Shown here: positions 1,884 to 59,258 of the stretch, piece after piece
Position numbering within the stretch: the stretch's first letter is position 1
Layout of the letters: the number at the start of each line of letters is the position of its first letter
Source: Escherichia coli
GTDB lineage: Bacteria; Pseudomonadota; Gammaproteobacteria; Enterobacterales; Enterobacteriaceae
Assembly: GCF_030013205.1 (NCBI RefSeq)
Contig: NZ_CP122648.1
Reading direction: 5' to 3' (one strand)
Length of the DNA: 64,000 bases
Position numbers and translations under genes: made by a program
Notes under the pieces: model-generated
Databases searched by the model: none
What the model saw: only the letters and a program-made list of their open reading frames with translations
Told to the model about the DNA's origin: nothing

Positions 1884-4146
1884 CCTGGATCTCCTTCGAC
1901 AATTCGACAAAGAAGGCGCTGTATCCGGCAACGCGCACCACCAGCCCGGCATAATCTTGTGGGCGCTGTTGCGCTTCCCGCAACGTGTCGGCGTTCACCA
2001 CGTTAAACTGAATGTGTTGTAACTTAAGCTGGGTAAATGCCCGTAAGAAGTCGGCCAGTTTGCGTAATCCCGCTTCACCTTCCAGGGTCGCCGGAGTGAA
2101 TTTCACGTTCAGCAACGTACCGTTAGACAGCAGCGTATTATCGAGCTTACTGACTGACTTCAGTACCGCCGTTGGCCCTTGTGCGTCCTGACCCAGCATA
2201 GGTGACAAGCCGCCGTCTGCCAGTTGTTCCCCGGCAAAACGACCGTCTGGCGTCGCGCCAACCACCGATCCCAACGGGACGTGAGCAGAAACGGTATACG
2301 ATCCCGGCGTGAAGTAGCCGCCGCGCGGGTTCTGGTATTTTTCCACTTCTTTGCAGTAGTGGCGTAACAGTTCGGCGCTGATGTTATCCACCTCGTCGAT
2401 ATCGTTACCGTATTTCTCGAAGCGGTTAATTAAGCGAGCACGGACTTTTTCGCCTTCTGGCGTTGCGAAGTTGGCTTTTAATACCGACAGCAATTCGTCA
2501 AAACTTAAACGCTGTTGCTCAAAAACCATACCTTTCAACGCATGGAGAGAATCGCTCAGGTTAGCGATACCGATCCCCTGTACGCCGGAGAAGTTATAAC
2601 GCGCACCGCCATCGGTAATATCGCGGCCTTTTTCCAGACAATCGCTGATAAAAGACGAGAGCAGCGGTACAGGTGCCCAGTCACGGTGACCGATATCGCA
2701 AATATTGCTGCCCTCAACCATCAGGGTGATGTAGTGGCTGATCTTGGCGCGGATCTGCTCCAGTAAACCTTCATAAGTCAGCGCAGCATTGCCTTCATTT
2801 TCATGCAGGCAGATTTCCATCACTTTCAGCAGATTAAACATCGCGATGTCATGCAAGCCGTAGGTTCTGCCGGGAATAGATAATTCCACACAGCCCACTA
2901 CGGAATAGTCGCGTGCATCTTCCAGCGAAACGCCACGGTTGAGGAACGCTGGCACCACCACTTCATCGTTAAAGATTTGCGGAATACCGGTGCCGAGGCG
3001 AATGGTTTCTGCGGTTTTCATCAGGAACGGCGTGTCGATCAAGGCGTTAGTGCGCACGCCGAGGTTCGGTTGCGGTAATTGCACGCTTTGATAAGCGTCA
3101 AGGCAAAGGAACGAAAGCACGTTCACCGCGCTACGTCCGTTCTCGGTTAACCCGCCGAGCAGTGCGGTATAGCCGGTCGGGAAACCGGCGAAATAACGCG
3201 CGCTACTGGTGGAGCGCAACAGCACGATGTCGTTGCATTTCACCCATAAAGATTCGAGCAGTTCTTTCAGGAACGCCGGATCTTCGCCCTGGGTTAATGA
3301 TGCCTGATAGAACGGCAACATATACTGGTCGAAGCGCCCTAAAGACAGAGAACTGGCGTTGGATTCGTATTGCAGAATGATGTTCATGTACCAGAATAAC
3401 TGGCACGCCTGCCAGAACGTCTGCGGCTTATGTTCGGCGTTATGGCGGGAGATCTCCGCAATAGTCAGCAGTTCTTCGCGACGCTGGGCATCTGTGCAGT
3501 TTGCCGCCATCGTTTCCGCCAGTTCAGCGTAACGCAGAATGTGTTTCCGCGAGGCTTCCAGCAGTAACAGCGCTGCCTGATAAAAGTGATTCTCCGGCTG
3601 TTGCTGACAATGTTGCTGCATCTGTGCCACCAGCTCCCCCAGCCCGTGATTCAGCAGGCGCGGGTAATCAATAATAATGTGCCCCTGGCCTTTATCCGTC
3701 TGGTTGATGCTGAAAATCTGCGTGCTGGTCGCGGCTTTTACTTCATCCGTCATCTGCCCGTTAATGAAATCTTTCATCGAACGTTTTTCCCAGTACGGGA
3801 ACAACTCTTCGCGGTAGATACGTTTATCTTCTTCGCTGATAGCAAAGCGGTCCTGCGGACGCGTCGGGAATTGATCCAGCTCTTTCAGCAGCCAGTAAGG
3901 GTCCATTTCCGGCGACATAATTCCGGCGCGCGGTTTCACCGTACGGTTACCGGCAATCAGTTCTTCATCACGAATCGAAATTTCAACATGTTCAAGGATA
4001 TACGCTGTTGCTTTCGCCCGGCGCAATATCACCGGTTCGCCTTCGGTTTGCCGATGGCTGGCGGTATAAAGCAGCGCCCGCTCCAGCGAGATTTCACGGG
4101 TATTGGCAAACAGTGCAGTTTTGAGGCGAGAGATACGATTCGTCAT
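1849..4146 (-). CDS. pflD: formate acetyltransferase 2 (glycyl-radical enzyme)
   Basis: 765-aa ORF; C-terminal glycyl radical motif (RVAGYSAFF); expected size for PflD. Confidence 0.9.
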   Translation of the reverse strand: MTNRISRLKTALFANTREISLERALLYTASHRQTEGEPVILRRAKATAYILEHVEISIRDEELIAGNRTVKPRAGIMSPEMDPYWLLKELDQFPTRPQDRFAISEEDKRIYREELFPYWEKRSMKDFINGQMTDEVKAATSTQIFSINQTDKGQGHIIIDYPRLLNHGLGELVAQMQQHCQQQPENHFYQAALLLLEASRKHILRYAELAETMAANCTDAQRREELLTIAEISRHNAEHKPQTFWQACQLFWYMNIILQYESNASSLSLGRFDQYMLPFYQASLTQGEDPAFLKELLESLWVKCNDIVLLRSTSSARYFAGFPTGYTALLGGLTENGRSAVNVLSFLCLDAYQSVQLPQPNLGVRTNALIDTPFLMKTAETIRLGTGIPQIFNDEVVVPAFLNRGVSLEDARDYSVVGCVELSIPGRTYGLHDIAMFNLLKVMEICLHENEGNAALTYEGLLEQIRAKISHYITLMVEGSNICDIGHRDWAPVPLLSSFISDCLEKGRDITDGGARYNFSGVQGIGIANLSDSLHALKGMVFEQQRLSFDELLSVLKANFATPEGEKVRARLINRFEKYGNDIDEVDNISAELLRHYCKEVEKYQNPRGGYFTPGSYTVSAHVPLGSVVGATPDGRFAGEQLADGGLSPMLGQDAQGPTAVLKSVSKLDNTLLSNGTLLNVKFTPATLEGEAGLRKLADFLRAFTQLKLQHIQFNVVNADTLREAQQRPQDYAGLVVRVAGYSAFFVELSKEIQDDIIRRTAHQL

Positions 4147-4196
4147 GAGGAACTCCTGTGGGAAAGCGAACCCGCCCTTACGGGCGGGATAAGAAC

Positions 4197-4517
4197 TTAA
4201 GCGGTTTGTGCCAGGTGAGCTTCAATTTTGCTCATAATGGCATCAGCGCGTTTTACCGCGTCGCTGATGTTGACGCGCACGATGGTCTTGCCAGCAAAAC
4301 GCTCTTCAAACTTGATGCCGATATCTTTGGTCAGAATCACCATATCGGCGCTCGCCACGTCTTCCGCAGTCAGTTCATTTTCCAGACCAATCGAGCCCTG
4401 GGTTTCTACTTTCACTTCCCAGCCTTTCGCTTTCGCGGCACTTTCCAGCGCCTCTGCCGCCATATAGGTATGGGCAACACCAGATGGACACGCGGTTACT
4501 GCAATAATTTTCGTCAT
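4197..4517 (-). CDS. frwB: PTS fructose-like IIB component
   Basis: 106-aa ORF, EIIB motif (VTACPSGVAHTYMAAE); synteny. Confidence 0.85.
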   Translation of the reverse strand: MTKIIAVTACPSGVAHTYMAAEALESAAKAKGWEVKVETQGSIGLENELTAEDVASADMVILTKDIGIKFEERFAGKTIVRVNISDAVKRADAIMSKIEAHLAQTA

Positions 4518-4531
4518 GGCTCGTTCCTCAA

Positions 4532-5617
4532 TTAATTAATTTCAAAATCCAAATCCAGGTCGTCTTCCTTCTCATCAGTCGAAGACCCATTTTTACGCGC
4601 CAGACTTTTCAGCACGTTCACGCAGACTGCCGTCACAACCGCCCCGACAGCCACTGCTGCGATATAACCCAGCTTGCCTTCAACCACCGGCAGCACAATC
4701 AGACCACCCCAGCCTGCATAGCACTGCGCACCGACCAGTGCCGCAGTTACCGCACCACAAACAGAACCGACCATGATGGAAGGAATGACACGTAACGGAT
4801 CGGCTGCGGCAAAAGGAATCGCCCCTTCAGTAACGCCAACACACCCCATCACCAGCGCCGCTTTGCCGGTTTCGCGCTCTTCTGCGGAGAAATTTTTACG
4901 ACCAATCAGCGTCGCCAGCCCCATGCCCAACGGTGGAACACAAATCCCAACAGCGGCAATAGCCACCACGGTATAAACACCCTGAGCAACGCAAATCAGC
5001 ATGAAGGCATAGGCCACTTTGTTAACCGGGCCGCCCATATCGAACGCCAGCATCAGCCCCATGATCACCGCCAGCATAACAATGCTGCCCTGCTGCATCC
5101 CTTGTAGCCACTGAGTCAGGCTGTTGGTCAACGCCCCTACAGGCTCGCCCAGACCCCACATCATGATGCCTGCGGTAATCAGTGTGCCGACGATCGGAAT
5201 GATGAAGATGGGCATCACCGAGCGCAGAACTTTATGCACCGGAATTTTCTTCAGGTAATGCACCACGATGCCGCCGATAATCCCGGCGATCAGTGCACCA
5301 AAGCTGTTACCAACCCAGGCACCGATAGCGCACGGAGCCAGAGCTGAGCGTTCTGCAATGGAGTAACCAATGTAAGCGGCGAGGAAAGGCACCATCAGCG
5401 TCAAACCTGCAACGCCGATATCAAACAGTTTTTTCAAATTCGGATCGGCGACGGCATCCGGCACTGCGCCTTTGCCATACAACATGACGGAAACCGCCAG
5501 CAAAATACCGCCCGATACCACGAAGGGAATCATGTGTGAAACGCCCGTCATTAAGTGCTGACGGGTATTTTTCAGGATCTGCACCAACTCATTCATAAGC
5601 TGCTCCCGGGCTTGCAA
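4532..5617 (-). CDS. frwC: PTS fructose-like IIC permease
   Basis: 361-aa polytopic membrane ORF; synteny with frwB/ptsA; exact start (first Met vs MNELVQ…) uncertain. Confidence 0.85.
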   Translation of the reverse strand: MQAREQLMNELVQILKNTRQHLMTGVSHMIPFVVSGGILLAVSVMLYGKGAVPDAVADPNLKKLFDIGVAGLTLMVPFLAAYIGYSIAERSALAPCAIGAWVGNSFGALIAGIIGGIVVHYLKKIPVHKVLRSVMPIFIIPIVGTLITAGIMMWGLGEPVGALTNSLTQWLQGMQQGSIVMLAVIMGLMLAFDMGGPVNKVAYAFMLICVAQGVYTVVAIAAVGICVPPLGMGLATLIGRKNFSAEERETGKAALVMGCVGVTEGAIPFAAADPLRVIPSIMVGSVCGAVTAALVGAQCYAGWGGLIVLPVVEGKLGYIAAVAVGAVVTAVCVNVLKSLARKNGSSTDEKEDDLDLDFEIN

Positions 5618-49704: not shown

Positions 49705-50778
49705 TTACGCTCCCGGCTCTGCGGTCGCCCTGGCCGGTGTGGAGAAATCACCGACCTTAATTTTTTCCACCAGGCAACCGGCGGCGTAGTCTTCCACCAC
49801 GTAATCAATGTTCATTGACTCGTAGTTCTCCACGCGGTCGAGTTTCGGGTTTTCCTCAATCACGCGGCGATGGCTGTCATCCATGTAGTAGATGGACAGG
49901 TTTTCCAGCTTCGTGATGAGCATCGCATCCGCCGGGAAGTACGGGACGCGTACCGCCGGCAGGTTACCGATGCGTTTCTGGCTGATGATGACGTCAGCGG
50001 CCAGCATTTCGCTGTTGTCCTGCTCTTTGTTAACGATGGGGAAATACTTGTCCGCCAGTAGCTGACGCCCCACAATCACCACAAGGTCAGGGTCTTCCTG
50101 ATACCACGGCTCAATCAGGTTGTTGGTCGCATCCATCACCAGTGCATCAAGGCTGGCATAATCACCGCCCTTACCCACGCGGATAACCTCAGAGGTGGTG
50201 CGGCCTTCCTCGTCAGTGACCTTGCTCATCACACGCGCCGGGGCTTCATTGCGGTATTTCTGCAGCCAGCCAACCGCCACATCCTGCAGCATCGGATTGC
50301 TGCTGCGGTCAGAGGTTTCGGCACGCTTCACGCCGTTAAAACCGGCCATGATGAAATCAAGGGACTGGCGTTTGATAATGGCGTTACGGATACGGAGCTG
50401 GAAATCCTGATAACGCGCCCACAGGTCAAGCGTTTTGTAGCGGATATAAAAATCGAAGTTAATCTGGTCGCATTCGTACTTGTTAGACGCCAGCTTCGAG
50501 AAGTCCTTCGGCTGACGCTCGGTGCCACCGGCGGTGTCGGTGGTGCTGGCGATGGAGCCGGTGACACCGATACCAATTTTTTCCCCTTTCATTTCGCTGA
50601 CCGGCACAATGTTGATGCGGGTCAGAAAATCAGAGGACTCCTGCATGGTGTTCATCAGGGTCTGGGTGACCGACGGTTCAACGGTGAATTTTTTCGACAC
50701 ATCACCGGCGTCGATGCCGTTCAGTTCGGCAACACGGGACAGGTAGGCATTAAATTTAAAGCGGGTTTCCTGGCGCAT
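49705..50778 (-). CDS. N: major capsid protein N
   Basis: 357-aa ORF. Confidence 0.85.
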   Translation of the reverse strand: MRQETRFKFNAYLSRVAELNGIDAGDVSKKFTVEPSVTQTLMNTMQESSDFLTRINIVPVSEMKGEKIGIGVTGSIASTTDTAGGTERQPKDFSKLASNKYECDQINFDFYIRYKTLDLWARYQDFQLRIRNAIIKRQSLDFIMAGFNGVKRAETSDRSSNPMLQDVAVGWLQKYRNEAPARVMSKVTDEEGRTTSEVIRVGKGGDYASLDALVMDATNNLIEPWYQEDPDLVVIVGRQLLADKYFPIVNKEQDNSEMLAADVIISQKRIGNLPAVRVPYFPADAMLITKLENLSIYYMDDSHRRVIEENPKLDRVENYESMNIDYVVEDYAAGCLVEKIKVGDFSTPARATAEPGA

Positions 50779-50836: not shown

Positions 50837-51691
50837 TCAGCAGTTCGTCATCAGGGCGTCACCGCCACCGCCGGTGGCCTTGCTGCGGCGCTGCTGGGTC
50901 AGACTTTCGGTGTGGTCGAGACTGTTTTTCAGGCGGGTGAATGCCTGGCTGGTTTCATCCGCCCTGTCAGTCACCTCCTGCTTAAGTGCGGAAAAGGCGG
51001 TTTCCATCTCAGCGAGGCGCTGCTCAGTGGCGCTCAGCTTTTCCTGCACATGTTCAGCAACAGCGGTCACCGCTTCATGCACATCATTCAGACGGGCGTC
51101 ATCGCTGGCCTGTTTGCGGCCAAAAATGGATTTCACCTTTTCGGTCAGGGCGGTGAACACGGTTTCAGGCAGGTCTTCAAATTCCAGCTCAACAGGCGTT
51201 GCCACTGAAATCAGGTTTTCAGGGCTTAATTTGAAGCGGTTCAGGGGGTTGTGTTTTGCCGTGCGGCAGAATTCCAGGTATTCCGTGCCGAGGCTTGCCG
51301 GGTCATCGGTGACGGCCAGACCCACCAGATAACATTTGCCGGTATTGGCAAAGTTCGGCTGAATTTCCATTGAGGTATAGACCTTCTGCGCGGCCTTGTT
51401 CATCGCGATAAGGTCATCGGTCGGGGTGATTTTCGCAAACAGCGCCCATTTGCCTTTCAGCGCCGAATCGTCATCAATCTTTTCGGCCTTCAGTTCAACC
51501 ACATCGCCATAACGTTTAAAAATACCGTCAGGCAGGATGCCGCGCAGATGTTCCAGGTTAATGCGGCAACCATAGACGCGCGGGTCAAAGGTTTCAGCCA
51601 TTTCCTGAATATCCTGCGCACTGATGACACGCCCGTCACAGGTGTCACCCTCAACGCCGATACGAAAGAATTTTGAGACTTTTTTTGCCAT
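50837..51691 (-). CDS. O: capsid scaffolding protein O
   Basis: ORF trimmed to MAKKVSKFFRIGVEGDTCDGR (284 aa). Confidence 0.8.
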   Translation of the reverse strand: MAKKVSKFFRIGVEGDTCDGRVISAQDIQEMAETFDPRVYGCRINLEHLRGILPDGIFKRYGDVVELKAEKIDDDSALKGKWALFAKITPTDDLIAMNKAAQKVYTSMEIQPNFANTGKCYLVGLAVTDDPASLGTEYLEFCRTAKHNPLNRFKLSPENLISVATPVELEFEDLPETVFTALTEKVKSIFGRKQASDDARLNDVHEAVTAVAEHVQEKLSATEQRLAEMETAFSALKQEVTDRADETSQAFTRLKNSLDHTESLTQQRRSKATGGGGDALMTNC

Positions 51692-51864
51692 TGTCAGGAG
51701 TCCTGAATAGTGATTAGAGGAGTCACATGTCGGCATCAGTTTCCCGACGATGCGCATCCTCCGCCATCAGTCCCGGATGGCTTATCACTGACACAACAGC
51801 ACCTTAGCGAATCGCGGGGCGCGACTCAGTAGGCTTGCCGTGTATTCATCACGGCGAGGTATTC
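51692..51864. promoter_or_regulatory. divergent phage late promoter region (O-operon and P-Q operon; Ogr-dependent)
   Basis: intergenic region between divergent O and P; call is by position in the P2 map, no operator motif confidently identified. Confidence 0.4.
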
Positions 51865-53637
51865 ATGACCATCACCACAGACACCACTCTTTTACACGAC
51901 CCGCGTCGTCAGGCGGCGCTGCTGTACTGGCAGGGGTTTTCCGTGCCGCAGATTGCCGCCATGTTGCAGATGAAACGCCCGACGGTGCAGAGCTGGAAAC
52001 AGCGCGACGGCTGGGACAGCGTTGCCCCCATCAGCCGTGTCGAAATGAGTCTGGAAGCGCGGCTGACCCAGCTCATCATCAAACCGCAGAAAACCGGCGG
52101 TGACTTCAAGGAAATTGACCTGCTCGGACGCCAGATTGAACGGCTGGCACGGGTCAACCGTTACAGTCAGACCGGCAACGAGGCAGACCTTAATCCGAAC
52201 GTCGCTAACCGCAACAAAGGCGGGCGTCGCAAACCGAAAAAGAATTTTTTCAGCGACGAAGCCATCGAAAAGCTGGAGCAGATTTTCTTTGAGCAGTCTT
52301 TCGACTATCAGTTGCACTGGTATCGCGCCGGGCTTGAGCACCGCATCCGCGATATCCTGAAATCCCGCCAGATTGGCGCGACGTTTTATTTTTCCCGCGA
52401 GGCGCTGCTGCGTGCCCTGAAAACCGGTCATAACCAAATTTTTCTGTCGGCCAGTAAAACGCAGGCGTATGTGTTCCGCGAATACATCATCGCCTTTGCC
52501 CGTCTGGTTGACGTTGACCTGACCGGTGACCCGATTGTCCTGGGCAATAACGGCGCAAAACTGATTTTTCTCGGCACCAACTCCAACACCGCGCAGAGCC
52601 ATAACGGCGACCTGTACGTCGACGAGATTTTCTGGATCCCGAATTTTCAGGTACTGCGTAAGGTGGCATCAGGTATGGCCTCACAGAGCCACCTGCGCTC
52701 GACCTATTTCTCCACCCCGTCCACGCTGGCGCACGACGCCTACCCATTCTGGTCGGGTGAACTGTTCAACCGGGGACGCGCCAGCGCCGCTGAACGCGTG
52801 GAAATCGACGTCAGTCATAACGCCCTTGCCGGGGGGCTTCTCTGTGCGGACGGCCAGTGGCGGCAGATTGTCACCATTGAGGACGCCCTGAAAGGTGGCT
52901 GCACGCTGTTCGACATTGAGCAGCTCAAACGTGAAAACAGCGCCGACGATTTTAAAAACCTGTTCATGTGTGAATTTGTTGACGACAAGGCGTCGGTGTT
53001 CCCGTTCGAGGAGCTGCAACGCTGCATGGTCGACACGCTGGAAGAATGGGAAGACTATGCGCCGTTTGCCGCCAATCCGTTCGGCTCCCGCCCGGTATGG
53101 ATTGGTTACGACCCGTCACACCGTGGCGACAGCGCCGGATGCGTGGTGCTGGCACCGCCGGTGGTGGCCGGAGGTAAATTCAGAATACTTGAGCGTCACC
53201 AGTGGAAAGGCATGGACTTTGCCACTCAGGCGGAATCCATCCGCAAACTCACCGAAAAATACAACGTCGAATACATCGGAATTGATGCCACCGGCCTCGG
53301 TGTCGGCGTGTTCCAGCTCGTGCGCTCGTTCTATCCCGCCGCGCGCGATATCCGCTACACGCCGGAAATGAAAACCGCAATGGTGCTCAAGGCAAAAGAC
53401 GTCATCCGCCGTGGCTGTCTGGAATATGACGTCAGCGCCACCGACATCACCAGCTCGTTCATGGCTATCCGCAAGACCATGACCAGCAGCGGACGCAGCG
53501 CCACCTATGAGGCCAGCCGTAGCGAGGAAGCCAGCCACGCCGACCTCGCCTGGGCGACCATGCACGCCCTGTTAAATGAGCCACTCACCGCCGGTATCAG
53601 CACCCCGCTGACATCCACCATTCTGGAGTTTTACTGA
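51865..53637 (+). CDS. P: terminase ATPase (large) subunit P
   Basis: ORF trimmed to MTITTDTTLLHDPRRQAALLYWQGFSV (590 aa). Confidence 0.9.
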   Translation: MTITTDTTLLHDPRRQAALLYWQGFSVPQIAAMLQMKRPTVQSWKQRDGWDSVAPISRVEMSLEARLTQLIIKPQKTGGDFKEIDLLGRQIERLARVNRYSQTGNEADLNPNVANRNKGGRRKPKKNFFSDEAIEKLEQIFFEQSFDYQLHWYRAGLEHRIRDILKSRQIGATFYFSREALLRALKTGHNQIFLSASKTQAYVFREYIIAFARLVDVDLTGDPIVLGNNGAKLIFLGTNSNTAQSHNGDLYVDEIFWIPNFQVLRKVASGMASQSHLRSTYFSTPSTLAHDAYPFWSGELFNRGRASAAERVEIDVSHNALAGGLLCADGQWRQIVTIEDALKGGCTLFDIEQLKRENSADDFKNLFMCEFVDDKASVFPFEELQRCMVDTLEEWEDYAPFAANPFGSRPVWIGYDPSHRGDSAGCVVLAPPVVAGGKFRILERHQWKGMDFATQAESIRKLTEKYNVEYIGIDATGLGVGVFQLVRSFYPAARDIRYTPEMKTAMVLKAKDVIRRGCLEYDVSATDITSSFMAIRKTMTSSGRSATYEASRSEEASHADLAWATMHALLNEPLTAGISTPLTSTILEFY

Positions 53638-54671
53638 TGAGCAAGAAAAAAGGGAAAACACCGCAACCTGCGGCAAAAAAAATGACCGCCAGCGCCCCGA
53701 AAATGGAGGCATTCACCTTTGGTGAGCCGGTGCCGGTACTCGACCGCCGTGACATTCTGGATTACGTCGAGTGCATCAGTAACGGCAGATGGTATGAGCC
53801 ACCAGTCAGCTTTACCGGTCTGGCAAAAAGCCTGCGTGCTGCCGTGCATCACAGCTCACCGATTTACGTCAAACGCAATATTCTGGCCTCGACATTTATC
53901 CCACATCCGTGGCTTTCCCAGCAGGATTTCAGCCGCTTTGTGCTGGATTTTCTGGTGTTCGGTAATGCGTTTCTGGAAAAGCGTTACAGCACCACCGGCA
54001 AGGTCATCAGACTGGAAACCTCACCGGCAAAATATACCCGCCGTGGTGTGGAAGAGGATGTTTACTGGTGGGTGCCGTCCTTCAACGAGCCGACAGCCTT
54101 CGCGCCCGGTTCCGTGTTTCACCTGCTGGAGCCGGATATTAATCAGGAGCTGTACGGCCTGCCGGAATATCTCAGCGCCCTTAACTCTGCCTGGCTGAAT
54201 GAGTCAGCCACGCTGTTCCGCCGCAAGTATTACGAAAACGGCGCTCATGCCGGATACATCATGTACGTCACCGATGCCGTGCAGGATCGCAACGATATCG
54301 AAATGCTTCGCGAAAACATGGTTAAGTCGAAAGGCCGCAACAACTTTAAAAACCTGTTTCTCTATGCCCCGCAGGGGAAAGCTGACGGCATTAAAATTAT
54401 CCCGCTCAGTGAAGTGGCGACGAAGGACGATTTTTTTAATATCAAAAAAGCCAGTGCCGCAGACCTGCTGGACGCGCACCGCATCCCCTTTCAGTTGATG
54501 GGCGGCAAGCCGGAGAACGTCGGGTCGCTGGGTGATATTGAGAAAGTGGCAAAGGTCTTTGTCCGCAATGAGCTTATCCCGTTACAGGACAGGATTCGGG
54601 AAATAAACGGCTGGCTCGGTCAGGAGGTCATCCGCTTTAAAAACTACTCACTGGACACTGACAACGGCTGA
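53637..54671 (+). CDS. Q: portal protein Q
   Basis: 344-aa ORF; start overlaps P stop. Confidence 0.9.
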   Translation: MSKKKGKTPQPAAKKMTASAPKMEAFTFGEPVPVLDRRDILDYVECISNGRWYEPPVSFTGLAKSLRAAVHHSSPIYVKRNILASTFIPHPWLSQQDFSRFVLDFLVFGNAFLEKRYSTTGKVIRLETSPAKYTRRGVEEDVYWWVPSFNEPTAFAPGSVFHLLEPDINQELYGLPEYLSALNSAWLNESATLFRRKYYENGAHAGYIMYVTDAVQDRNDIEMLRENMVKSKGRNNFKNLFLYAPQGKADGIKIIPLSEVATKDDFFNIKKASAADLLDAHRIPFQLMGGKPENVGSLGDIEKVAKVFVRNELIPLQDRIREINGWLGQEVIRFKNYSLDTDNG

Positions 54672-54676
54672 ACATC

Positions 54677-54698
54677 GCCGCCTGCGGGCGGCTTTTTT
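54677..54698 (+). terminator. rho-independent terminator after Q
   Basis: GCCGCC-TGCG-GGCGGC followed by TTTTTT. Confidence 0.6.
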
Positions 54699-54840
54699 AC
54701 ACCCTGTCATCACGCCCTCACACGCTCACCACCGCACAAAACACCCCGCAGACACACCAACGCCTCAACGGGCAGACTAAACGCCGTCACGACGCGCTCA
54801 GACGCTGAAAAAATAAAATCAGCACCACCGCCAGCGCGCA

Positions 54841-54859
54841 GTGCTTTCCCCGCCTCGCC
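54841..54859. other. cos site (19-nt cohesive-end sequence)
   Basis: GTGCTTTCCCCGCCTCGCC is the reverse complement of GGCGAGGCGGGGAAAGCAC, the P2/186 cohesive end as I recall it; lies between Q and the cargo, as in the P2 map. Confidence 0.55.
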
Positions 54860-54987
54860 CGCCCGCTTCATGGGTCGGTTTTAATGCAGGTGCATGAACA
54901 CACTGGAGACGCACCAGTACTGGCGGTGGTCACGTAGATCCGCCCCTTAAAAGCCATGCAGAATAATGCAACTATTGCGGGCGTCGG

Positions 54988-55407
54988 CTAATCATCTTCT
55001 AAAGGTGGAATTTTGATGCCACTAATTAGCAGTACTTTCCGGTATGCCTCAAAAATAATGTTGTGTGTTTTTTGTAAATCATCGAGCATTTTTTGCCGTC
55101 CTGCTGGGGTATCTTTGGCAAAATTATGAGCGCGAAAAAAATCATGTGCCAAGTAGTTTCTGGCTTTAAGAGCATCTGACACATACTCCAGTGTATCAGC
55201 ATCCTCCACCATCCTAGACTTCAGTGCGTAATTCAATTTACCCAGCGTGTATTTATCCATTTCTAAAAACTGTTTTTTCAGCGACTGTATATCTTTCCCC
55301 TGACTCATATCATACTCAGTGATAACATTTATCAACTCAGTCTCCAGTAATTGAGCTGCTTCCGAAGCATAACCAAATTTCCAATAAACCGTATCAAGCG
55401 TCACCAT
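54988..55407 (-). CDS. hypothetical cargo protein with R-x4-H (HEPN-like) motif
   Basis: 139-aa ORF in AT-rich DNA, codirectional with and downstream of the HNH gene; contains ARNYLAHDFF. Confidence 0.6.
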   Translation of the reverse strand: MVTLDTVYWKFGYASEAAQLLETELINVITEYDMSQGKDIQSLKKQFLEMDKYTLGKLNYALKSRMVEDADTLEYVSDALKARNYLAHDFFRAHNFAKDTPAGRQKMLDDLQKTHNIIFEAYRKVLLISGIKIPPLEDD

Positions 55408-55498
55408 ATAATCTATTCCCCATATAACAAATCACACCCAAAATTAAATCATAACACATAATTAAATCTAACGCCTCTCTGCACCAGAAGAAGTCATG

Positions 55499-56830
55499 TT
55501 AACGCTTATCATGGAACTTTTTCCATTTTGTCATCAACTTTCCAGCATCAAGTTCTACATGATGCGGTTGTAGAGTTTTACCCTCAAACATAGTTTTGTG
55601 GATACAATTAATAGAGAAATGAACCGTTAAGTCCTCTGGATTAATCCCCATTAATCCTTTATCAAACATTCGGTGTAAACTTACTTCAAGTAACAGGCCA
55701 TTAGATGTGTTATTATTTGCTGATTCTGTTATTGCTTCAATATGTGCGGCTTCCAATATCCCCTCTGGCAATGGATAGCCAGTAATAGCACATCTGCCAT
55801 TGAAGTTATCCCAAACACGGCGTTTGAAATCAGCTTGATCTCCAGCATGACGGACTTTGTGAGTAACCTCGACTGTTCGTCCTGTAGCACAGGTATCGTT
55901 TGCGGCCTTGAAAGGATTAATTAGACTTTCATTAATGGCTATATCCGTTCCATCCATGATAAGAGATATTTCATTATTGGGTTCGGGTGATGTTAATGGA
56001 CTTATGTACTGATTGCTTAAAAAAGTCATACTAGATTCTTCATCAGTCGCGAGTTTCCACGCTTCTGATTGTGTCATTGTTAGCAATGCCGTTTGATAAA
56101 CTTGCTTATTAAAATAACGTTTATCTTTCTTGTAACTCCCCATATTAATAGTACTAGATTTAATCGGAAGTGTTTTATCACCAATTAGTAGATCACGTAT
56201 TTCTACAGTCTCTTCTAAGGTATCAATAGGAGCTACTATAGGGTTAGTAAACGGGTTATCTACATGATCTACGTGGTTGTGTCGTAAATGCCACTCTATA
56301 GCACTATCTTTTATATGTATCTCGCAGACAGGGCATACAATAAGCCCCATAGATGTTACAGGTAGCTTTTTGCCACCGATTAAGCGTAATGTATTTGCAT
56401 TCTGGTTATGTACTTTCTTTTGGTTCTGTGTCAGTACACTACGCTTAGCCTCTAAACGGGTCGGAATCTTAGCAAGATTAAGCGATTTACGGCTCTCTTG
56501 TCTCTCAAGATCATAGATCCGAATCCCTGCTTCAGTTTTGATTTTTGTCCACATAGAGATAGAACTAAGGAATTTATGTCCATGTACTTTTTCATAATCA
56601 GCATAAGCTTGCAAAGTAGCAGTGGAACTATCTAATCCTTTTTTACGGAGTGCTGTATATTGCTGAAAAAGATTAATAGCATGAGCTGTAATAGAGCGCC
56701 TATTCTCTATAATTTGCGCTTTTTTTGCTGCTTGTTCTGCTTGCAATGCTTTTTGTTCAGGGGTAAGCGACTTCTTTTTGGCTTTCTTGGTTCTTTTCTT
56801 ACTCAAAGTTTTCTTACTGTTATTGTTCAT
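55499..56830 (-). CDS. HNH nuclease-domain cargo protein (Lys-rich N-terminus, C2H2-like zinc finger, C-terminal HNH)
   Basis: 443-aa ORF; N-terminus SKKTLSKKRTKKAKKK; CPVCEIHIKDSAIEWHLRHNH; C-terminus GRCAITGYPLPEGILEAAHIEAI…SNGLLLEVSLHRMFDKGLMGI resembles the HNH endonuclease core; AT-rich. Confidence 0.7.
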   Translation of the reverse strand: MNNNSKKTLSKKRTKKAKKKSLTPEQKALQAEQAAKKAQIIENRRSITAHAINLFQQYTALRKKGLDSSTATLQAYADYEKVHGHKFLSSISMWTKIKTEAGIRIYDLERQESRKSLNLAKIPTRLEAKRSVLTQNQKKVHNQNANTLRLIGGKKLPVTSMGLIVCPVCEIHIKDSAIEWHLRHNHVDHVDNPFTNPIVAPIDTLEETVEIRDLLIGDKTLPIKSSTINMGSYKKDKRYFNKQVYQTALLTMTQSEAWKLATDEESSMTFLSNQYISPLTSPEPNNEISLIMDGTDIAINESLINPFKAANDTCATGRTVEVTHKVRHAGDQADFKRRVWDNFNGRCAITGYPLPEGILEAAHIEAITESANNNTSNGLLLEVSLHRMFDKGLMGINPEDLTVHFSINCIHKTMFEGKTLQPHHVELDAGKLMTKWKKFHDKR

Positions 56831-56939
56831 TTTGCAAGCCTTTAATCTAATTCATGGAAAGGGGCATTCACTTGCCCTGTATCCAGTAAACTGACATAAC
56901 ACGATATAAGCAAGCTCCGTAATTCTTTCATGTTAATCA

Positions 56940-59258
56940 TCAATGGTCCATTGTGAATCCCGGCCACTCATCAGCGACCGGATACGTGAATTTTTTACCG
57001 TCGTAATTTACAGTCGCGCCACGCGCCAGCGCCTCAAGCTCCCATCTCTGAGGCCTGATACCGTTCTGAGCAAGGTCTACGCGGATACGGGTAATTTGCA
57101 TTCGTTCTGACCGGGTCAGTCTGGCCGATGGTGCAATTTCATGCGGTTTTAACGGGCTTCCGTTTCTTTGCTGACGGTTTGGCGTTCTCAGGTCGTATTT
57201 TAATGCGCCCCTGAGCGCCCTCACGACCTCCGGTTCATTCCATTCAATAACACCGTCATCAACCAGATTAAGCACTGCTGCGGCGTGCTCAGAAGGAGTG
57301 GGAGCCGGTAACGAAGTATCACCGCTGGTGAGCTTTCCACAGTTATTGACAGGACTCCGAGGCGCGGCGATGCCGCTTTTTAAAGTCAAAGGCTCAACGA
57401 CCGGAACTTTCGGCACAATGCGCCAGTCCGTCGTTCTGGTGATATGAATATGACGCGCGCCGAGATGCGGCGCGTAAATGCCGACCACTCTCTCGACTTC
57501 TTCCTCGTATTCGTTAACGTCATCCGACGGGCTACGGGCGACCCTGACAGTCTGACAATCGCGCGGGACATTTGCCCCGCCCTGCGCGCTGATATACAGC
57601 GCAAAATCGCCACTGTCTGCGGCGGCGCGTGCAGCCTCCACGCGTTCGTCAAATTCATCAGCAATGCTGACGCCGCGAGGCAATTTACGTAGCTCACGGT
57701 AAGCTCCCATTGTCGGCAGGCCAACCGTTTTAAATTGCGGGATGCGCCACGTTGATGCCCATGCGGTAACAGCCGCCGCAGTATCTTTCAGCGGTCTGCC
57801 GGTATCGTTATCGAGCTGACCATCCAGTGCATAGCCGTCGATATTTTTTGAAATGTATTTCGCGATATATCCCGCAGCACCGCCCCGGTTAAGGTGTTTT
57901 GCCTGAAAACGGTTTCGCGCGGCTCCTCTTTCGTCGCCATCCTCTTTGAGCGCATAGCGACGCATGATTTCGATAATCTGGTTACGCTGGCGTGGATTAC
58001 AAAAAAGCATCATATGCCAGTGCGGCGTTCCGTCGTGGTGTGGCTCGACGACTCGCAAACCGTAGACCTGTAAATCATTATCCTTGAATGCCGTGCGCAT
58101 CAGGCTCCAGATACGGCAGAGATAACGCTGCGCATCCTTTGGATTAAATGCCTCATCATTCCAGCCGTGATTAAGCTGGACGGTTTTATTTTCGCCTTTT
58201 CCGACCTGACGTGTCGGGTGATACTTTGACGGCGCGGTAAGCGTGATAAACATCCCCACATCACCCTCTGAGGCGGCGTAACGCTCAATACCGGCAATGG
58301 TGTTCATCAGCTCCATCCGGCGAATTTCAGGATTAGAAATACTGCCCATCACCTTACTGATAAGGTCGATGCGCTCGCCGGTTTCCCTGTTTTCAAGGTC
58401 ACACGATTTAAGAAATTCCAGATTTGCCTGGCGGCGCGCACGCACATCACGAATGGCGTGTTTACTGGCATAAGGAGAACGGTCTTTATTGACCTCCCCG
58501 ACAGCTATCAGTAACGCTTCATGCCAGCGCATACGCTGGCCTTTAAGCTGATGAGTCCACCACTCATCGTTAAACAGACGGGCAATTGCAGAATATGCCT
58601 GCCTCGTGGTCATCTGTCCTTTACGGTATTTTTTCCAGTAGAGAGGGGAAATATTGAAAGCACGTGCAGCACCAGCAACATGACCATAGAGGTGAGCCTG
58701 CGCCTCATCCGTAAACAGCGATTCTTTTTCGCCATGCGCATCCACCCAGGCATCGCTGAGTTCCTCATACATCATGAAAAGCTGCGATGAGATACGGGCA
58801 GCAAACTTTTTCAGCTCCTTGTCATTCATTCCCGGCAGGCGCGCATAGTGGTCACGCTCTGCCAGAAACAGTAACGACGCGTCGGTGTTCATTTCATGGC
58901 GCTGATTCACACGCTCAATGCGCGGCCATAAACGACGCTGAAAAGTGGATGTGAGGAAATAAAACCCGTGCACCGGGCTTTTATTGCGCCGGATGTAGTC
59001 ATAGCGTGAAGTAAACAGCGAGCGCAAAAAGTAAGGCAGGCGGTTAATCGTGGATAAAACACCTTGCACCTGACGCATCTCGTCACGTGTAAGGGGTCTT
59101 TCGCGCCCGACAGCCTCGCGTGGCGCGTTCCATGCATAAGCACCTGTAAACGCCTTACCGGTGCCTGCGGCAAATGCTGACGGAGGGACAAAACGTCCGG
59201 AGGCTTTAACGGCCATGTGAGCCAAAAGCCTCTGAACAACGCTTGCTGAGTTGCTCAA
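56940..59258 (-). CDS. A: replication initiation endonuclease A (rolling-circle Rep)
   Basis: 772-aa ORF in the P2 A position; true start may be a few codons downstream. Confidence 0.85.
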   Translation of the reverse strand: MSNSASVVQRLLAHMAVKASGRFVPPSAFAAGTGKAFTGAYAWNAPREAVGRERPLTRDEMRQVQGVLSTINRLPYFLRSLFTSRYDYIRRNKSPVHGFYFLTSTFQRRLWPRIERVNQRHEMNTDASLLFLAERDHYARLPGMNDKELKKFAARISSQLFMMYEELSDAWVDAHGEKESLFTDEAQAHLYGHVAGAARAFNISPLYWKKYRKGQMTTRQAYSAIARLFNDEWWTHQLKGQRMRWHEALLIAVGEVNKDRSPYASKHAIRDVRARRQANLEFLKSCDLENRETGERIDLISKVMGSISNPEIRRMELMNTIAGIERYAASEGDVGMFITLTAPSKYHPTRQVGKGENKTVQLNHGWNDEAFNPKDAQRYLCRIWSLMRTAFKDNDLQVYGLRVVEPHHDGTPHWHMMLFCNPRQRNQIIEIMRRYALKEDGDERGAARNRFQAKHLNRGGAAGYIAKYISKNIDGYALDGQLDNDTGRPLKDTAAAVTAWASTWRIPQFKTVGLPTMGAYRELRKLPRGVSIADEFDERVEAARAAADSGDFALYISAQGGANVPRDCQTVRVARSPSDDVNEYEEEVERVVGIYAPHLGARHIHITRTTDWRIVPKVPVVEPLTLKSGIAAPRSPVNNCGKLTSGDTSLPAPTPSEHAAAVLNLVDDGVIEWNEPEVVRALRGALKYDLRTPNRQQRNGSPLKPHEIAPSARLTRSERMQITRIRVDLAQNGIRPQRWELEALARGATVNYDGKKFTYPVADEWPGFTMDH

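Follow-up and report, generated by a model that had tools for sequence, protein, structure and literature searches.

Solo HEPN proteins and the P2 hotspot

Solo HEPN defenses, such as HepS, PD-T7-4 and Tha, are already established. HepS ("HEPN Solo") is encoded by the Gifsy-1 prophage of Salmonella Typhimurium and acts without a partner: by default its tetramer is inactive, but once the tail-tip protein J has opened it, it cuts tRNA anticodon loops (Sargen et al., Nature 2026; PMC13043305; PDB 9OIJ/9OIK). PD-T7-4 is a validated single-gene defense of the DUF4145 type (Vassallo et al. 2022, PMC9519451). The HEPN fold is an up-down bundle of four helices, in which the motif lies at the end of helix 3 or where the loop to helix 4 begins; helix 4 is frequently kinked, and a polar residue (N, D or H) directly after the arginine is typical of the HEPN R-x4-6-H motif (PMC3710099). 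In terms of function, the nearest precedents for the 139-amino-acid (139-aa) protein described here are PD-T7-4 and HepS.

This protein is encoded in a P2-like prophage of Escherichia coli. The hotspot between gpA and Q in P2 has been found experimentally to be rich in anti-phage systems (Rousset et al., PMC9122126; Vassallo et al., PMC9519451). One entry in the table of P2 loci by Rousset et al. reads "HNH_2 + hypothetical; WP_023304084 + WP_023281582", and this is the arrangement seen here; it does not figure among the systems tested in that study (PMC9122126). Signature peptides of the HEPN-like family were found in none of the systems cloned in these two studies (PMC9122126, PMC9519451), and a literature search on the protein accessions and the PHROG returned no paper.

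The prophage junction and its cargo

The window (the whole stretch of DNA that was analyzed, 64,000 nucleotides of contig NZ_CP122648.1) includes, at 49.7–59.3 kb, the junction between late and early genes of a P2-like prophage (Peduoviridae). After the genes N, O, P and Q come a cos-proximal non-coding stretch and then a pair of AT-rich, minus-strand cargo genes, with gpA beyond them (Table 1). The GC content of the cargo is 0.37–0.39, versus 0.52–0.59 in the flanks. The two cargo genes, the 139-aa ORF and an HNH gene, occupy the gpA–portal Q (old/tin) hotspot. An earlier note on this DNA, made from its letters, had pointed to a hotspot context; the P2 portal and terminase genes on one side, gpA on the other and the AT-rich cargo between them bear this out.

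Table 1. Features of the prophage junction, in window coordinates
Feature	Position	Strand	Remarks
Capsid N	49705-50778	-	
Scaffold O	50837-51757	-	
Terminase P	51835-53637	+	
Portal Q	53637-54671	+	
P2 cos-proximal non-coding region, portal Q to 139-aa ORF	54672..54987	.	Hotspot boundary
139-aa ORF, predicted stand-alone HEPN-like protein	54988..55407	-	PSP3 gp38/orf38 homologue, phrog_12893 member
R83-N84-Y85-L86-A87-H88 codons, R-N-x3-H HEPN-type motif	55144..55161	-	Conservation in 68 homologues
G12...L25 codons (G-x3-E-A-A-Q-L-L-E-x-E-L), conserved helix-1 block	55333..55374	-	G12 and E22 invariant
Upstream leader of the 139-aa ORF, ~90 bp	55408..55498	-	Kept across five hotspot arrangements; contains ribosome-binding site
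443-aa HNH_2-domain nuclease gene, type IV restriction-like	55499..56830	-	Separable from HEPN-like module
gpA replication endonuclease	56940-59258	-	

The small ORF starts with ATG and has its stop codon within the tabulated coordinates. Its sequence includes SDALKARNYLAHDFFRAHNF, in which the peptide ARNYLAHDFF, singled out in the earlier note, forms residues 82–91; the codons for R83 and H88 are at 55159–55161 and 55144–55146. A motif scan finds this to be the single R-x(4-6)-H in the whole protein. With 5 R and 3 H among 139 residues, about 0.3 such motifs per protein are expected by chance, so that in a lone sequence the motif is not significant, in agreement with the earlier caution that it is weak evidence by itself. 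That the ORF is coding is clear from homologues ranging from 99% to about 25% identity, from 1,978 cluster representatives and from a model with a pLDDT of 90.

A ribosome-binding site of the GGGG/GGAG type lies about 7 nt ahead of the ATG. The leader opens with a weak hairpin directly after the HNH stop codon; a promoter scan found no consensus sigma-70 promoter in it, and an Rfam scan of window positions 54600–57000 gave zero matches. The leader presumably supplies the small gene's own promoter.

On the other side of the small gene, the segment at about 54700–54930 matches P2-family phages at 90–96% identity. This conserved cos-proximal region contains terminator-like hairpins at 54675–54692 and 54822–54875, as well as a 53-aa ORF on the minus strand (54710–54871), which appears as a "hypothetical protein" in some P2-family phage records and is probably not a gene.

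The other cargo gene encodes a 443-aa protein with an HNH_2 domain at its C-terminus (Pfam, residues 347–397, E 2.5e-10), a Lys-rich N-terminus and a zinc-finger-like C-x2-C...H-x4-H stretch (CPVCEIHIKDSAIEWHLRHNH). It weakly matches the model of a phosphorothioate-DNA-dependent restriction endonuclease (33 bits versus a cutoff of 180) and, judged by these sequence features, looks like an uncharacterized type IV-like restriction nuclease. The same cargo pair is seen in a degraded P2 prophage in several swine ETEC genomes, with E. coli K_EC180 (NZ_CP062203.1, 4770375–4780325) as the example; there, truncated tail and terminase pseudogenes adjoin the portal gene, and the cargo has been kept in a defective element.

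A large family with a conserved motif

A word-indexed search returned 37 homologues of the 139-aa protein, from 99% to about 36% identical among those aligned, in Escherichia, Enterobacter, Salmonella, Klebsiella, Citrobacter, Kosakonia and Lelliottia, together with many metagenomic proteins of about 153 aa. In an exhaustive profile search, 1,978 cluster representatives passed E≤1e-3 and 647 of them E≤1e-10; these proteins are almost all stand-alone and 140–190 aa long. The family thus delimited comprises about 2,000 clusters at 50% identity, from Proteobacteria, Acidobacteria and Cyanobacteria. One direct homologue is gp38 (orf38) of the Salmonella phage PSP3, which is 72% identical over its full length, has no further gene between it and the right cos end, and is annotated only as gp38; PHROGs lists the family as phrog_12893, of unknown function. 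One metagenomic member of 279 aa (P0278/P0078) continues at its C-terminus into a HepT-like HEPN domain (PF01934, residues 167–263), and is either a natural fusion of two HEPN domains or a gene-calling merge of adjacent genes.

Conservation was counted in an alignment of 68 sequences reaching down to about 25% identity. G12, E22, G56, N84, H88 and G103 are invariant in all 68, and R83 (67/68), Q19 and T54 (65/68 each), L86 (64/68) and H94 (62/68) are nearly so. The conservation of the R-N-x3-H sequence across these homologues exceeds chance, and the doubt attached to the motif in a lone sequence, for which the earlier note had proposed a check of its conservation, is answered by the alignment.

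Is the gene part of the phage's own program? It has no counterpart in reference P2 or in most P2-like prophages, and only 30 of 5,426 complete E. coli genomes have a match. Family members also occur on plasmid/ICE-like contigs and on chromosomal islands outside phages. Because it is absent from most P2-like prophages and also present outside phages, the gene is not phage housekeeping. These same findings bear on the possibility that the product is a non-catalytic or non-defense helical protein, such as an anti-defense factor, a regulator, or an RNase serving the phage's own program. Such a role would have to accommodate the rarity of the gene in E. coli, its absence from reference P2 and its presence on islands and plasmid/ICE-like elements, and it finds no support in a DNA-binding domain, as none was detected. 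That R, N, H and E22 do not vary over the family of about 2,000 clusters speaks for catalysis, and the non-defense reading is considered unlikely.

The predicted fold

AlphaFold2, run with the family alignment, predicts an all-helical four-helix bundle (pLDDT 90.1, pTM 0.82). The predicted helices span residues 4–35, 40–50 and 55–65 (unbroken from 40 to 64 in a second model), 70–93, a short 95–99, and 101–128. The motif at residues 83–88 falls within the final third of helix 3, five residues short of the helix end, and helix 4 appears kinked at the level of secondary structure. At that level, the topology agrees with the one described for HEPN proteins, with four helices and the motif late in helix 3; N84 directly follows R83, so that the motif takes the canonical form R-N-x3-H. 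The four-helix bundle that the earlier note had proposed to look for is present in the model.

A Foldseek search of AFDB50 with this model gave 70 matches at E≤1e-3. An annotation is attached to 21 of the best 50, and 19 of these 21 belong to HEPN families (TM 0.74–0.87); the names encountered are MAE_28990/18760-like, DUF4145, DUF86, AbiU2-like, Apea-like, Cthe_2314-like and "HEPN domain". The nearest of these model neighbors, at TM 0.8–0.87, are DUF4145 (PF13643), MAE_28990-like (PF18737) and DUF86-HepT (PF01934) proteins, which share with the 139-aa protein the R/N...H type of motif and are likewise small, mostly helical and associated with defense. The DUF4145 proteins of a 32-sequence alignment differ from it, however, in having a Cys-rich N-terminal extension and an R-x2-G-N-x3-H spacing.

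Curated libraries and solved structures give a different picture. The best Foldseek match in the PDB has an E value of only 0.25, with no specific solved-structure match for the model, and profile searches of PDB sequences with two family alignments found no HEPN chain (HepS included, if present in that copy of the PDB). Pfam, NCBIfam and PADLOC yield no significant match for the 139-aa protein, Pfam being empty even at E≤10. A Pfam scan of the 68 members likewise gave none at E≤1e-3, whether to HEPN profiles of clan CL0291 or to related ones; PF13643, which would place the protein with DUF4145 and PD-T7-4, matches neither the query nor the 68 members at that level. The sub-threshold Pfam matches of these 68 are mostly to HEPN families (Apea four, RiboL-PSP two, DUF4145 two, and MAE_28990, Cthe2314, Swt1 and LA2681 one each), and one family member matches the PADLOC Cas13-ApeA HEPN model (E 7.7e-4). 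By hhalign, the family profile matched neither the 32-sequence DUF4145 alignment (probability 0.07) nor a single DUF4145 protein.

Two copies in tandem were modeled as a proxy for a homodimer. The pTM of 0.71 is above what the model would be expected to give for two unpacked domains, and the five models disagree, with pLDDT falling from 71 to 44.

Taken together, the motif, the predicted topology and the model neighbors make it well supported, though not proven, that the 139-aa protein is a divergent member of the HEPN superfamily lying outside the curated libraries. Of the two identities offered in the earlier note, the HEPN-like RNase is favored by motif, fold and AFDB neighbors, whereas no curated HEPN profile matches significantly and similarity to solved structures is non-specific. 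The other identity, an antitoxin-like regulator, was rejected: the protein has neither a helix-turn-helix (HTH) domain nor a cognate toxin, and its catalytic-type residues are invariant.

An autonomous module or half of a pair?

Does the small gene work together with the HNH gene? The earlier note had called its product a partner protein, and a two-gene system might be envisaged, in which the HNH_2 nuclease and its small HEPN-like neighbor would divide the roles of sensor and effector between them, or would both be effectors, in the manner of PD-lambda-3. Both genes are AT-rich cargo with the same orientation, separated by 91 bp. Copies of the pair at ≥96% identity are present in 11 E. coli genomes and in 4 viral contigs, and Rousset et al. 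give HNH_2 and the small gene as one arrangement (PMC9122126). PD-lambda-3 is a validated pair of nuclease and HEPN protein, also found on E. coli mobile elements with the nuclease gene followed by the HEPN-type gene, and the 139-aa protein has a weak match to the PADLOC model PD-Lambda-3_B (E 0.002, 15 bits).

The likeness to PD-lambda-3 is superficial, however. Component A of that system is a PD-(D/E)XK nuclease, in contrast to the HNH nuclease here, and component B combines AbiJ_NTD3 with Ymh, in contrast to the single domain of the 139-aa protein; neither is homologous to the HNH/small-ORF pair, and the genes here dissociate. The profile match is partial, aligning residues 32–95 with profile positions 107–168, mostly upstream of the 3B HEPN core. 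Homology to PD-Lambda-3_B was rejected on the grounds of this alignment, the other architecture and the lack of a match in ten other family members.

The dissociation of the two genes is seen from both sides. In Lelliottia prophages, a 73%-identical homologue of the small gene is the sole gene between gpA and the portal gene. Elsewhere, at least six unrelated sets of neighbors flank it. The commonest E. coli variant (P0004, 1,417 index blocks) stands with PDC-M18A, PDC-M18B and PDC-S31 (DUF2971); in Salmonella the neighbors are DinI and a 243-aa protein (with or without a 69-aa one), and in Kosakonia DinI lies upstream and a GmrSD/NsnA-like enzyme downstream. One viral contig (L034) has a 162-aa protein next to it and another (L035) proteins of 89 and 99 aa, and in the isolated phage PSP3 the order is tumA, tumB, gp37 and then gp38. 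More distant members (about 40% identity) have other surroundings: DUF4145 and PDC-S52 genes on a chromosomal island, or GmrSD, a type I RM system, a PIN toxin–antitoxin pair and ArdC on a plasmid/ICE-like contig; they also occur alone. Conversely, a viral contig (L024) encodes an HNH homologue of 76% identity with no HEPN-like family member nearby.

The small gene also keeps its own leader. About 90 bp ahead of the ATG are conserved in five arrangements; in the window this homology begins just past the HNH stop codon, and the homology between arrangements ends just before that codon. A viral genome (L023/L030, IMGVR_UViG_2703718839_000009) is 98% identical to the window in gpA, 96% in HNH and 99% in the portal gene, versus only 85% in the small ORF. 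This gap between the HNH gene and the small ORF indicates recombination between the two, the small gene being flanked by breakpoints.

Lone occurrence, varied neighbors, a conserved leader of its own and an HNH homologue without the small gene thus identify the latter as an autonomous single-gene cargo module, with no fixed partner, amid defense and defense-candidate genes. In the contexts surveyed it is stand-alone, prophage-encoded and without a co-occurring partner or inhibitor. The designation as a partner protein is therefore dropped, and an HNH–HEPN two-gene system, for all the recurrence of the pair, appears quite unlikely.

Two of these neighborhoods deserve separate description. On the chromosomal island (L003, 7084–12113), a same-strand run comprises DUF4145, a 123-aa ORF, the family member, DUF6988 (equivalent to PDC-S52) and DUF5677, and only 10–24 bp separate the first four genes from one another; this spacing suggests that stand-alone HEPN-like genes form an operon here. 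The commonest arrangement in E. coli prophages (L007–L011, genes at 3098–5597) stacks the PADLOC candidates PDC-M18A, PDC-M18B and PDC-S31 (DUF2971). Rousset et al. give these and the small gene as one four-gene arrangement (PMC9122126), which appears instead to consist of three independent modules.

If no partner protein is needed, the small gene could still belong to a cryptic toxin–antitoxin system, in which a constitutively toxic HEPN RNase would be neutralized, somewhat as in HepT/MntA, by a small RNA or a micro-ORF located either in the leader or on the 3' side. Most small HEPN toxins do have antitoxins (PMC3710099), and the ~90-bp leader is unusually conserved. In about 12 contexts, however, no nucleotidyltransferase gene of the MntA type (MNT) adjoins the small gene, nor was an HTH protein or Rfam RNA found alongside it; no small ORF is conserved, and the HepT domain PF01934 occurs in the family only as the separate C-terminal domain of P0278, which places the protein apart from the type VII HepT/MntA systems. 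HepS, moreover, demonstrates that solo HEPN proteins can be auto-inhibited (PMC13043305). A hidden antitoxin is accordingly regarded as very unlikely.

A possible mechanism

What, then, might the protein do? The reading favored here, with somewhat better than even confidence and by analogy with HepS, is that of a solo HEPN-superfamily protein, carried as autonomous gpA–Q cargo in P2/186-like phages and acting as an abortive-infection RNase. Going by the published description of HepS, both proteins are small, single-domain, HEPN-type prophage cargo with an R-x4-H motif and no conserved partner or inhibitor. (The HepS sequence itself was not found in the LT2 Gifsy-1 record.) HepS would thus be the best functional analogue, as a self-contained abortive-infection protein that is both sensor and effector.

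By this analogy, lysogens would make the protein constitutively, with expression from the gene's own leader. The protein would form a homodimer or higher oligomer, in which two R83-N84-x3-H88 motifs come together as a metal-independent RNase site, probably assisted by the helix-1 residues E16, Q19 and E22. E16/Q19/E22 are about as far from the start of helix 1 as R83–H88 are from the start of helix 3, and the G12...L25 block to which they belong may supply a candidate accessory acidic or polar part of the active site. The protein would be inactive by default through auto-inhibition, until some component of a superinfecting phage turned it on; it would then cleave tRNA or another RNA and stop translation, resulting in abortive infection or exclusion. 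RNase activity, oligomerization, defense phenotype, trigger and RNA target are all put forward here by analogy with described HEPN systems.

A bolder proposal can be entertained only tentatively, at somewhat below even confidence. The protein may be the founding example of a large family of solo HEPN ribonucleases of 140–170 aa, in which a single four-helix domain would do both the sensing and the killing, the trigger and RNA target would be unlike those of HepS, Tha and PrrC, and the block of G12, E16, Q19 and E22 would be peculiar to the family and belong to the active site or to the auto-inhibition switch.

Significance

Since solo HEPN defenses are established, the 139-aa gene is not conceptually new; what is new is an uncatalogued family of probable solo HEPN proteins, and what was known is solo HEPN defense as a kind. 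A specialist is unlikely to be surprised, but the family is large, its protein very small, readily testable and invisible to annotation tools. Despite its wide distribution, and its place in a defense hotspot that is among the best studied in E. coli, PADLOC, Pfam and NCBIfam are empty for it. The arrangements listed as "HNH_2 + hypothetical" and "hypothetical + DUF2971 + hypothetical + hypothetical" can be read as stacks of independent modules, with the small gene common to both. If the proposed function is confirmed, the family would represent a very compact (139 aa) type of single-gene abortive-infection RNase that current defense-annotation tools have missed, and would offer a minimal model for how a solo HEPN protein stays silent without an antitoxin and recognizes infection.
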